From the NCBI GenBank assembly GCA_902592935.1, contig CACJGD010000003.1, forward strand, positions 4,258 to 68,257: a stretch of DNA of 64,000 nt. Direction: 5' to 3'. Shown one piece after another: positions 31,286-34,045 of the stretch (the first letter of the stretch is position 1; each line of letters opens with the position of its first letter). Below the pieces are notes generated by a model. That model was not told the origin of the DNA. It saw only the letters and a program-made list of their open reading frames with translations, and did not search any database. This DNA comes from an uncultured Pelagibacteraceae bacterium. GTDB lineage: Bacteria > Pseudomonadota > Alphaproteobacteria > Pelagibacterales > Pelagibacteraceae. A program made the translations under genes and the position numbers.

Positions 31286-31939
31286 AGTACTGTAAAAAAT
31301 TTATTAGACATTGAAAAAAATATTAAAGTTTATTTAAATGAGCTAAATATTAAAAGTTATCCAAAAATTATAGCAGTTTCAAAAACATTTAAAATTGATA
31401 AAATCTTGCCACTTATTGATCATGGTCACACTGATTTTGGTGAAAATAAAGTTCAGGAAGCAGTTGAAAAATGGACAGAAATAAAAAAAAATAACTCAAA
31501 AATAAAACTACACATGATTGGGAAATTGCAAACAAATAAAGTTAAATTTGCAGTAAAATTATTTGACTATATTCATTCTGTTGATAGCGTAAAACTTGCT
31601 AAAAAGATATCGGATGAACAAAATAAAATAAATAAAAAAATTAAAATATTTTTACAAGTAAATATTGGTGATGAAAATCAAAAATCAGGAATAAGTAAAA
31701 ATGAGATCAATCAACTAATTTCTTACTGTAAAGAAATTGATCTGGATATAATTGGTTTAATGTGTATTCCTCCTTTTGACGTTGAGTCAGAGGGTTATTT
31801 TGAGGAGATGAATAAATTAAATAAAAAACTTGGTTTTACTGAATTGAGCATGGGCATGTCTTCTGATTTTCTCAAAGCAGCTAAACATTTATCAACATAC
31901 GTTAGGGTTGGATCAAGCATTTTTGGCCAGAGATCTTAA
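31280..31939 (+). CDS. yggS: PLP homeostasis protein YggS
   Basis: IAVSKT, FGENKVQE, HMIGKLQTNK, GLMCIPP, LSMGMS.D, VRVGS.IFG. Confidence 0.97.
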   Translation: MHSTVKNLLDIEKNIKVYLNELNIKSYPKIIAVSKTFKIDKILPLIDHGHTDFGENKVQEAVEKWTEIKKNNSKIKLHMIGKLQTNKVKFAVKLFDYIHSVDSVKLAKKISDEQNKINKKIKIFLQVNIGDENQKSGISKNEINQLISYCKEIDLDIIGLMCIPPFDVESEGYFEEMNKLNKKLGFTELSMGMSSDFLKAAKHLSTYVRVGSSIFGQRS

Positions 31940-32430
31940 AAAATTTTTATTTTTGAATTTTTTTTAATTAATTTAAGCATAATTAAAAAATCTTTTTTCA
32001 TTAATGCAACACATCCAGACGTTGGTTTATAATCTTTAGTTAGGTGAATAAAAATACAGCTCCCTCGGCCAGTTATAGGCTTTTTAAAGTTATATTTTAT
32101 TGGAATAAACAAATCATATTTATAATCTTTTCTATTTAATCTTTCATGTTTAATTCTTTTATGTATTTTGAAAAGTTTATTATATTTTTTTGGAAAACGA
32201 ATATCATTACACCAACCCATATTTTTTTTAATTTCAACACACTTAAGTAAAGTTAGTGGTTTTTCCAAACGATCTTTTCTAAAATATAGATTTTCAATTT
32301 CAAAGGTTCCTTTAGGAGTTTTTTTGTCTCCTTCTTTTTTATTGCTTGTTGAACCCTTTTTTCCAATAGAACACTTAAATTTAAATTCATCAATTTGAAG
32401 AGTGTGTTTATTTTTGACTAAAATTGTCAT
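31936..32430 (-). CDS. L,D-transpeptidase (YkuD) family protein
   Basis: KKEGDKKTPKG, GSCIFIH, PTSGCVAL catalytic His/Cys motif. Confidence 0.88.
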   Translation of the reverse strand: MTILVKNKHTLQIDEFKFKCSIGKKGSTSNKKEGDKKTPKGTFEIENLYFRKDRLEKPLTLLKCVEIKKNMGWCNDIRFPKKYNKLFKIHKRIKHERLNRKDYKYDLFIPIKYNFKKPITGRGSCIFIHLTKDYKPTSGCVALMKKDFLIMLKLIKKNSKIKIF

Positions 32431-32442
32431 ATTCTCTTATTT

Positions 32443-33006
32443 GTGAATGCTCAAAATTTAATAATATATAAGTTCAAATCTTTATATCACATTCTTGAGG
32501 AACTTGCTTTAGACTTAAATTTTAAAATTACCCTTGCAGATAGTGAAAATTCCTTAAATGATAAAGTAAAAAATCTTAGCAATTATTTAATTATATCTAA
32601 TAAAAAATTTTCAAATATCAGTAATCAATTTGTTTTAGATAATACACCAATTAACATTTTTAAATTGGTGGAAAGAATAAACATTGAATTTTTAAAATTA
32701 CAATTCAATAGTCAATCTGAGTTAAAAGTAAACAATTATACTATTGATTTAAATTCAAGAGAAATGTTTAAGAACAATACCAGGCTTAAGTTGACTGAAA
32801 AAGAAATAAATACAATTACTTATTTATCAAAATCTAACACACCGGTGAGTATCCATGAACTACAAGAAAAGGTTTGGAGTTATCAAACTGGTATAGAAAC
32901 TCATACTGTTGAGACTCATATTTATAGATTAAGAAAAAAAATTTTAAATTCTTTTGATGATAATCTATTTATTGTCAGTAAAAAAAATGGCTATGAAATC
33001 AAATAA
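32443..33006 (+). CDS. OmpR-type winged-helix regulator, CenR-like, with degenerate receiver
   Basis: KLTEKE...L...VW.Y......THTVETHIYRLRKKI winged helix; N-terminal ~90 aa lack recognisable receiver motifs. Confidence 0.8.
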   Translation: MNAQNLIIYKFKSLYHILEELALDLNFKITLADSENSLNDKVKNLSNYLIISNKKFSNISNQFVLDNTPINIFKLVERINIEFLKLQFNSQSELKVNNYTIDLNSREMFKNNTRLKLTEKEINTITYLSKSNTPVSIHELQEKVWSYQTGIETHTVETHIYRLRKKILNSFDDNLFIVSKKNGYEIK

Positions 33007-33106
33007 AAAAAACCCAATTGCAAAAGATCTTTTTACAAAAAAATATAAGCCAAAAATAGTTAAGCCAAAAAAAGGCAAAGGAAGTTTTAAAAGAAAAAAA
33101 AATTAA
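32993..33106 (+). CDS. Small ArfA-like alternative ribosome-rescue factor (37 aa; not in ORF track)
   Basis: Manual translation MKSNKKNPIAKDLFTKKYKPKIVKPKKGKGSFKRKKN*; contains the ArfA KKGKGS motif; fills the gap between the regulator and the PfkB gene. Confidence 0.7.
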   Translation: MKSNKKNPIAKDLFTKKYKPKIVKPKKGKGSFKRKKN

Positions 33107-33115
33107 GACTCAAGT

Positions 33116-34045
33116 TTAAAGCCTTGCCCCAATCTGTTGTATCACTCTTGATGACATCTCTGTACCTTTTTCTAAACTCTCCCTAATTGATAATTTATTT
33201 ACATATCCGTGTAGAAATCCAGCAGCAAAAAGATCACCAGCACCTGTAAGGTCAACAATTTTTAAATTTTTTTTTATATCGCATTCTATAATATCTTTAC
33301 CATTTACAGCTACAGCACCTTTTTCACCTCTAGTTATAACCACTAATTTATTAAGTTGTTTTGAAAAATTTATAACTTCATTAAAATTTTTTGCTTCAAT
33401 TAATGAGGTAATTTCTTGTTCATTAGCAAAAGTTATATCCAGTTTATTTTTTACTAAGTTTAAAAAGTGTGATTTATGTCTATCTACACAAAATTGATCA
33501 GAAAGCGACATAGCTATTTTATTTGCGTTGTTAATGGCTTTATCAAAAGCTTTTCTGGGCTCTCCCTCATCCCACAAATAACCTTCTAAAAATATTATTT
33601 CACTTTTTTTAATTGCATCAGTATTAACATCATTTTCATTAATTTTTCCTGCCGTTCCTAAGAAAGTACACATTGTTCTTTCTGAGTCTGGTGTTACCAG
33701 TATTAAACATGTTCCTGTAGGCAACTCTTCTTTTTTTTTCAAATAAAAGTAATCTACATTTTCTTTTTTTAATCCCTCCTCGTATTTGCTGCCAAATTCA
33801 TCATCTGAAACTTTACCTATAAAACCAACTTTATCACCTAGTTGAGACATCCCCACTATTGAGTTTGCTACTGATCCACCAGAAACTGTTTTCTCAATTT
33901 TAAGATTTATTAATAAATTTTTAAATTCATTTTCATCAAAAAATAATTTCATTGTGCTTTTTGTAAGATTATTTTTTGAAATAAAGTTGTCATCAACTTT
34001 ACAAATTACATCCACTATTGCATTTCCTATTCCTAAAATTTTCAT
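33116..34045 (-). CDS. PfkB family carbohydrate/adenosine kinase
   Basis: GIGNAIVD, GGSVANS, ERTM.TFLG, FANE.E, DLTGAGDLFAAGF. Confidence 0.93.
   Translation of the reverse strand: MKILGIGNAIVDVICKVDDNFISKNNLTKSTMKLFFDENEFKNLLINLKIEKTVSGGSVANSIVGMSQLGDKVGFIGKVSDDEFGSKYEEGLKKENVDYFYLKKKEELPTGTCLILVTPDSERTMCTFLGTAGKINENDVNTDAIKKSEIIFLEGYLWDEGEPRKAFDKAINNANKIAMSLSDQFCVDRHKSHFLNLVKNKLDITFANEQEITSLIEAKNFNEVINFSKQLNKLVVITRGEKGAVAVNGKDIIECDIKKNLKIVDLTGAGDLFAAGFLHGYVNKLSIRESLEKGTEMSSRVIQQIGARL

Follow-up and report, generated by a model that had tools for sequence, protein, structure and literature searches.

A stretch of 64,000 nucleotides from the genome of an uncultured Pelagibacteraceae bacterium, hereafter called the window, carries a genuine and conserved gene of 39 codons in the frame from position 32987 to position 33106. 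By homology this gene is a divergent member of the ArfA family, and its product is probably a release factor-dependent alternative ribosome-rescue factor, that is, a minimal ArfA that would be ungated and coupled in its expression to the gene upstream. Bacteria are generally considered unable to live without ribosome rescue, and SAR11 bacteria (Pelagibacterales), the order to which this genome belongs, are among the most abundant organisms of the ocean.

The gene and its surroundings

The gene lies between the end of a regulator-like gene and the end of a convergent kinase gene. The features of this region are listed below, with positions referring to the window.

32987 to 33106, forward strand: arfA-like gene in its likeliest extent, 39 amino acids plus TAA, MAMKSNKKNPIAKDLFTKKYKPKIVKPKKGKGSFKRKKN; start set by homology
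32993 to 33106, forward strand: the ORF as first described, 37 amino acids, read from an internal ATG
33005 to 33046, forward strand: N-terminal half of the peptide, KKNPIAKDLFTKKY; gapless phmmer/hmmsearch alignment to residues 12-25 of E. coli ArfA
33071 to 33085, forward strand: codons of the KGKGS motif, within the basic tail KPKKGKGSFKRKK (33062-33100)
33104 to 33106, forward strand: ordinary TAA stop codon, 5 codons past GKGSF
32443 to 33006, forward strand: upstream gene for an OmpR-type winged-helix protein of 187 amino acids, with PF00486 (Trans_reg_C) at residues 113-184 only
33116 to 34045, reverse strand: convergent gene for a PfkB-family sugar/nucleoside kinase (PF00294, E 3.8e-47)

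The initial annotation of this region had placed the ORF at 32993-33106 on the forward strand, overlapping the end of the regulator gene by 14 bp and ending 9 bp from the convergent PfkB gene. Translation of the window returns exactly the 37 residues that had been given, MKSNKKNPIAKDLFTKKYKPKIVKPKKGKGSFKRKKN, followed by TAA, and both distances are found. The stop codon and the reading frame stand; the start codon probably does not, since homology favours ATG 32987 and a product of 39 residues. The relatives of this peptide start with MAIKS... or MVTK... from a single ATG, whose counterpart in the window is the ATG at 32987 (MAMKS...), so that the start is likely to be located there and the 37-residue version probably begins 6 nt too far downstream.

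Counted from ATG 32987, the overlap with the winged-helix gene is 20 nt (14 nt from ATG 32993). An overlap of precisely 20 nt is present in 53 of 100 SAR11 loci, and 82 of the 100 have one of between 1 and 29 nt. This conserved overlap makes it likely that translation of the arfA-like gene is coupled to that of the winged-helix gene. At the other end, the kinase stop could be located in 83 loci, and in 80 of them the stop-to-stop gap measures between -11 and +17 nt. The genes around the locus are of a housekeeping nature (thiE-like, yggS-like, L,D-transpeptidase, nth and dapB). Pfam detects no receiver domain in the first 110 residues of the upstream 187-residue protein. With Trans_reg_C as its only Pfam match, this protein is at most a putative envelope regulator, the role given to it in the initial annotation. 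The winged-helix gene is also divergent from the L,D-transpeptidase (YkuD) gene at 31936-32430 on the reverse strand, the two being 12 nt apart.

Conservation and coding potential

Of 24 genomes of the genus subjected to a six-frame search, 20 have the ORF, with identities of 70-94%, and a pattern scan of species-representative genomes confirms at least 390 relatives. All of the 80 loci that were retained belong to the Pelagibacteraceae/Pelagibacterales (SAR11), cultured HIMB strains among them. Over a 31-codon core compared in 100 SAR11 loci (species genomes), the in-frame pS is 0.68 and the pN 0.107, which corresponds to a pN/pS ratio of 0.16. Four of the five other frames of these loci have ratios of about 1.3-1.8, and the antisense frame that shares the wobble (third codon) positions has a ratio of 0.30. 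Because just 20 of the 120 nt overlap another gene, this conservation is not borrowed from the neighbouring genes, and the conservation among relatives on which the first proposal depended is present.

A chance ORF, conserved merely through its overlap with the ends of two real genes, might be suspected in an AT-rich genome such as this one, the more so for an ORF that falls below the cut-offs of gene callers and whose exact sequence is absent from the protein collection searched. However, the overlap covers only the 20 nt mentioned above, the low pN/pS is found at loci whose synonymous sites are saturated, and homologues exist at other loci and in phages. Moreover, a profile built from 20 members of the family matches 666 clusters when run against 1.8 billion representative proteins. 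The pN/pS values and this profile result rule out both chance and overlap-driven conservation, a reading to which we assign next to no probability.

Relationship to the ArfA family

The window peptide scores 24.1-24.2 bits (E 2.5e-5) against the ArfA family model PF03889, just under the Pfam cut-off of 25.5 bits, and part of this score comes from the Lys-rich, low-complexity tail. The longer, six-frame version in the same genome reaches 25.7-25.8 bits, just above the cut-off. For all 20 genus members analysed, PF03889 is the sole Pfam match (best E 2.6e-8), in agreement with the ArfA-like identity that had been proposed and with the profile search suggested for checking it.

A phmmer search of the PDB (177,635 distinct sequences) with the single peptide gives six sequences at E<=10, all of them ArfA. 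The alignment is gapless and pairs residues 5-35 of the query (in the 37-residue numbering) with residues 12-42 of ArfA. The profile of 20 members retrieves the same six ArfA sequences only, with E values from 8e-6 (8.4e-6) to 2e-5. Five proteins of 35-41 amino acids (P0018, P0130, P0137, P0144 and P0118) are matched by the family profile with E values of 5e-14 to 6e-9 and score 34-39 bits against PF03889, over profile positions 10-43; as judged by these scores, they connect the SAR11 form with canonical ArfA. None of the NCBIfam models matches the peptide, and the PHROGs collection yields weak matches to unnamed families and nothing more. On profile and PDB matches, the SAR11 gene is a divergent member of the ArfA family: the family as a whole matches PF03889, and the single sequence of the window lies on the threshold.

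A short gene without a hairpin

Canonical arfA genes produce the active protein from a non-stop mRNA and are repressed through tmRNA tagging (PMC3989581, PMC6299226). E. coli ArfA is encoded as a protein of 72 amino acids and is 52-55 amino acids long when mature (PMC3989581), whereas the SAR11 form has 34-43. This length range holds for 99 of 100 SAR11 loci, in which the stop codon falls 4-10 residues past GKGS[FY]; in 76 of the 100 it falls exactly 5 residues past the motif. The gene is thus born short, as the initial annotation put it, with a stop right after the functional core. Family membership, pN/pS and length data agree with one another in pointing to a minimal ArfA-family gene in an alphaproteobacterium (SAR11), which had also been proposed.

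The region of the window shows no sign of a hairpin, its folding energy having a z score of +1.12 with respect to shuffled sequences and the number of terminator-like sites being 0. Across the 100 SAR11 loci the mean z score is +0.25 and 1% of the loci have a score lower than -2; the most stable local hairpin has a mean energy of -6.6 kcal/mol. Four long-tailed genes from bacteria outside SAR11 (loci L117, L121, L125 and L119) served as natural positive controls for hairpin folding. Each of them has within the ORF a GC stem of 10-13 bp with an energy of -22 to -26 kcal/mol, which begins 2-3 codons past GKGSY; in L117, L121 and L125 a T-run comes right after it. These genes belong to the same class, with the core RNPVAARLxxSRFxQ[RK]VxLxRKGKGSYxRR, but unlike the SAR11 genes they possess a long hydrophobic tail in addition to the in-ORF stem.

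The folding of the window and of the 100 loci, positive controls included, rules out a hidden hairpin or terminator, and the earlier remark that no hairpin could be seen holds well beyond the single sequence for which it was made. SAR11 bacteria have a stop codon in place of the hairpin of the long-tailed alphaproteobacterial genes. With its own stop codon and no hairpin inside the ORF, the gene cannot as such be controlled in the manner of E. coli arfA, where non-stop mRNA and tmRNA tagging do the gating. It is in this sense that the tmRNA independence originally put forward is borne out; constitutive expression, which had been proposed along with it, does not follow from the architecture of the gene.

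Other rescue and release factors in the order

The genome from which the window comes encodes both class-I release factors, the RF1 gene adjoining prmC. The RF2 gene (L022:826-1926(+), contig C17) codes for the SPF and GGQ motifs as well as W319 and F217, with V198 replaced by I; about 24 codons from its start, prfB also contains the classic programmed +1 frameshift site, AGGAG TAT CTT TGA A. SmpB is present. No tmRNA was found in this 75%-complete assembly by using the Rfam model RF01849 (alpha-tmRNA) and ARAGORN. As SmpB is present and an alpha-type tmRNA is found in five of five near-complete relatives, this gap is read as incompleteness of the assembly.

ArfB (YaeJ), a protein of about 140 amino acids with a GGQ-containing RF-1 domain (PF00472), was found in none of 46 (41 + 5) genomes of the order, closed genomes included. 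The RF-1-domain matches in these 46 genomes represent full-length release factors and number no more than two in any genome; in one fragmented assembly such a gene is split across contigs. The window peptide itself lacks GGQ and hence is not ArfB. In a survey of the class, arfB was recorded in 2,022 of 2,376 Alphaproteobacteria (PMC11633108). Table S1 of this survey gives two TRUE and five FALSE entries for Ca. P. ubique HTCC1040 (PMC11633108), which appears to have been scored with smpB and ssrA only, if the columns of that table follow the order of Table 1. With ArfB missing, the ArfA-like peptide would be the only backup to trans-translation.

Presence, absence and tail variants

The arfA-like gene is dispensable within the genus. 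Among 84 high-quality genomes, 26 gave no match to it, a tally in which the unpublished genome G496 is counted among the positives. In five closed genomes (L163-L167: G445, G442, G443, G450 and G441) the gene is missing at the locus, and PF03889 finds nothing at E<=1. In four of them 6-35 nt separate the stop codons of the regulator gene and of pfkB; G442 instead has an unrelated 206-residue ORF inserted at this position. The empty locus, together with the negative PF03889 result, rules out a divergent copy in these five genomes. They do not have ArfB either, and with neither a PF03889 match nor ArfB they appear to rely on trans-translation alone.

The tail of the peptide varies within the family and beyond it. 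In the genus g310 of the same family (L146, L147, L149-L151) the peptide contains ...RTPKFKKRVIKNKKKYNRKK..., from which GKGS is absent. This is a third tail variant, MKRNPVAKALRTPKFKKRVIKNKKKYNRKK..., in which GKGS is deleted and the aromatic residue and RKK are kept. The sister family f2 (L107:1986-2114(-), L108-L112, L128-L145) has, elsewhere in the genome, an ORF of 41-44 amino acids between an SDR-like and a nitroreductase-like gene (both named by eye); 18 of its 20 genomes contain it. This ORF shares the N-terminal NP[IV]A[KR]xLRTxK[FY] with the family of the window and carries a tail of the type NKKKLxEKKRIKIK or similar, with no KGKGS. Its pN/pS is 0.39, it has no Pfam match, and hhalign relates it to the window family with a probability of 95.5%. 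At the level of sequence, it is the N-terminal motif and not KGKGS that is conserved in the order.

These variants allow a broader but tentative reading, which we consider possible rather than likely. According to it, SAR11 bacteria, devoid of ArfB, would possess a graded series of ultra-short, hairpin-less ArfA proteins built on an N-terminal NPxAKxLRTPKY core, which would provide an ungated, parallel rescue route, possibly with RF1 as well as RF2, and which would be dispensable and shared with phages. As part of the same reading, the tails could perhaps be ordered from KPKKGKGSF through KNKKKYNRKK to a basic tail wholly devoid of KGKGS, a succession about which we are equally doubtful.

Four metagenomic SAR11-type relatives (P0016, P0039, P0067 and P0114) have no early stop and read into a recurrent hydrophobic tail, ...LHQFVxLxLMT.... 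This tail probably corresponds to the opposite strand of the 3' end of pfkB, and these sequences are either real longer forms or artefacts of sequencing or gene calling.

Comparison with known factors and possible mode of action

Residues 12-42 of E. coli ArfA (YhdL; PF03889; structures 5MDV, 5MGP, 5U4I, 5H5U and 7OJ0, with the ribosome and RF2) align without gaps to residues 5-35 of the SAR11 peptide. Like its E. coli counterpart, the latter is small, basic and predicted to be unstructured, in a genome that encodes RF2 and SmpB and whose relatives have tmRNA. Unlike it, the SAR11 form has its own stop codon and neither a hydrophobic tail nor an RNase III/terminator hairpin, and its N-terminus is shorter by about 5-10 residues: the first 5-10 or so residues of E. 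coli ArfA have no counterpart in the window peptide.

K28, K29, G30, G32, S33 and R36 are invariant in alignment A1, and the tail KKGKGS[YF]xRK is identical to that of E. coli ArfA; I16 and L20 are also kept, and F25 is replaced by Y. The conserved hydrophobic N-terminal minidomain of ArfA (I11, A18, L19, L24 and F25, with P23) is poorly kept in the window peptide, and in the gapless alignment ArfA residues 1-6 have no counterpart. At the RF2-contact/minidomain positions, L19 is replaced by D, and L24, A18 and P23 by K, all of them charged residues, and only the F25 position, as Y, is kept. P23 is retained in many relatives (TPKY).

The action of ArfA involves the placement of its tail in the vacant mRNA channel and of its N-terminal half at the decoding centre, together with the release factor (PMC5378476, PMC4245945). 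The KGKGS motif binds the empty mRNA channel (PMC6299226, PMC5378476), and its residues are individually non-essential (PMC6299226). The minidomain residues of the E. coli protein contact W319, V198 and F217 of RF2, and the patch formed by L19, L24 and A18 accounts for the strict dependence on this release factor (PMC5378476).

By homology, the SAR11 peptide would insert its basic tail into the vacant mRNA channel and place its N-terminal half, KKNPIAKDLFTKKY, in the A site, holding a class-I release factor in its open, active form, after which peptidyl-tRNA would be hydrolysed without a stop codon. The partner release factor would be RF2, by analogy, and RF2 is encoded in the genome. The peptide would be made from a stop-terminated message, probably through translational coupling to the winged-helix gene, and with neither hairpin nor terminator inside the ORF, its level would escape the control through tmRNA tagging that is known from E. 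coli. It would be the sole backup to trans-translation in a lineage without ArfB. The rescue activity, the release-factor partner, the coupling and the expression level are the parts of this explanation that we infer.

A precedent for a short, stop-terminated, ungated and release factor-dependent protein is ArfT of Francisella tularensis (PMC6299226). ArfT, with 40 amino acids, resembles the SAR11 peptide in size and in having a basic C-terminal stretch; its gene ends in a normal stop codon and lacks both a terminator and an RNase III site within the ORF, and in a reduced genome that has no ArfB the protein backs up trans-translation (PMC6299226). However, ArfT contains the merely KGKGS-like KKGGSTNKK and was judged to be independent of ArfA in origin (PMC6299226), whereas the SAR11 peptide carries KGKGS itself and is recognisable as belonging to PF03889. 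ArfT uses RF1 or RF2, as established by experiment (PMC6299226); the likeness to the SAR11 form, drawn from the published description of ArfT, is one of size and gene architecture.

This precedent raises the question of whether a factor of the ArfA lineage could act in the manner of ArfT, with RF1 as well as RF2 or with RF1 only, its RF2-specific patch being now charged. The changes of L19 to D, L24 to K and A18 to K occur in a gapless alignment and would suit such a mode, ArfT (40 amino acids, stop codon, no hairpin) demonstrates that a protein of this kind can work with either factor (PMC6299226), and the order-wide motif NPxAKxLRTPKY is unlike that of canonical ArfA. However, the tyrosine at position 25, I16 and L20 preserve part of the ArfA pattern, P23 is present in many relatives, and SAR11 RF2 retains W319 and F217, with V198I, so that we consider the use of RF1 unlikely. 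A different possibility is that the peptide, although derived from ArfA, is a basic ribosome- or RNA-binding mini-protein with another role, such as translation modulation, hibernation or a function together with the upstream regulator, and not one in non-stop rescue. The tight, conserved overlap with the winged-helix gene would fit this role, as would the complete loss of the KGKGS motif in some lineage variants and the dispensability of the gene in about 30% of the genus genomes. Even so, ArfA proteins are the only detectable homologues, the order-wide loss of ArfB leaves the niche of a backup vacant, and in ArfA as well no single KGKGS residue is essential (PMC6299226); a function outside rescue seems rather improbable to us.

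The peptide, acting as an ArfA, might also still be gated by trans-translation through another route, namely truncation of the message in its final codons through 3' processing, convergent pfkB transcription or sliding of the ribosome on the A-run at the end of the gene (AAA AGA AAA AAA AAT TAA), with tagging of a large share of the product. The 3' end of the ORF is indeed a long A-tract, and the two convergent genes, which end 9 nt apart, are not separated by a terminator. Nevertheless, this idea is purely speculative, no conserved structure or cleavage signal is present, and the in-frame stop 4-10 codons past the motif is conserved in 99 of 100 loci; its probability is very low. The reading of the SAR11 peptide as a minimal, ungated and release factor-dependent rescue factor, probably coupled to the upstream gene, is therefore the one that we prefer.

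Prior annotation and significance

The gene had been described as hidden, which is correct for the exact ORF, absent from a collection of 15 billion proteins, but not for its close relatives. Many SAR11-type relatives of 39-49 amino acids, found in a homologous-protein search with a 43-residue relative as query, are already labelled "alternative ribosome-rescue factor" or "ArfA" in IMG/JGI. In the literature searched, no description of a chromosomal SAR11 ArfA was found.

A survey published in 2024 reported arfA in 0 of 2,376 alphaproteobacterial genomes (PMC11633108). Contrary to this figure, PF03889 matches are present in 11 of 401 genomes of a class-wide sample of Alphaproteobacteria, indicating that ArfA exists, though rarely, in this class outside SAR11. 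The long-tailed genes mentioned above (L117:1477-1734(+), L121, L125 and L119) come from other Alphaproteobacteria with genomes of 3.8-5.4 Mb and encode canonical long-tailed ArfA.

An ArfA of 35-43 amino acids that lacks the feedback loop through tmRNA would indicate to what extent this factor can be trimmed, and also which half of it is indispensable, given that the N-terminal motif persists in peptides devoid of KGKGS. Such a gene would further show that DNA-level or annotation-based surveys miss genes of this type. The natural presence and absence of the gene in close genomes, together with its phage copies, offer ready comparisons for asking whether having a second line behind trans-translation makes a difference to streamlined cells.

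Phage copies

ArfA-like copies are also found in phages, pelagiphages included, as the first proposal had led one to look for. A tblastn search of the phage collection with the 39-residue peptide gave no match, probably owing to the low-complexity filter; the copies in pelagiphage and Caulobacter phage were found by using as query a 69-residue phage-like relative, P0082. The forms from pelagiphage HTVC027P (gp30), Caulobacter phage Cr30 and Roseobacter phage CRP-212 have in common with the SAR11 subfamily the core NPxAKE[VL]RTPKYKxxxxKPKKG[KR]GSFKR, and their stop falls 6-7 amino acids past the motif. They differ from the SAR11 gene, which is chromosomal, in an N-terminal extension of 20-30 amino acids.

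For instance, HTVC027P gp30 is a protein of 58 amino acids with the same core and a short tail. It has been reported as an ArfA-domain (PF03889) protein that is expressed both early and late in infection (PMC12753301). In Caulobacter phage Cr30 (KF301602.1), an unannotated ArfA-like ORF of 50 amino acids (L115:759-911(+)), which ends in ...KRNPIAKALRSSHLQPKIVKPRKGKGSFTRKGK, is located between two hypothetical genes.
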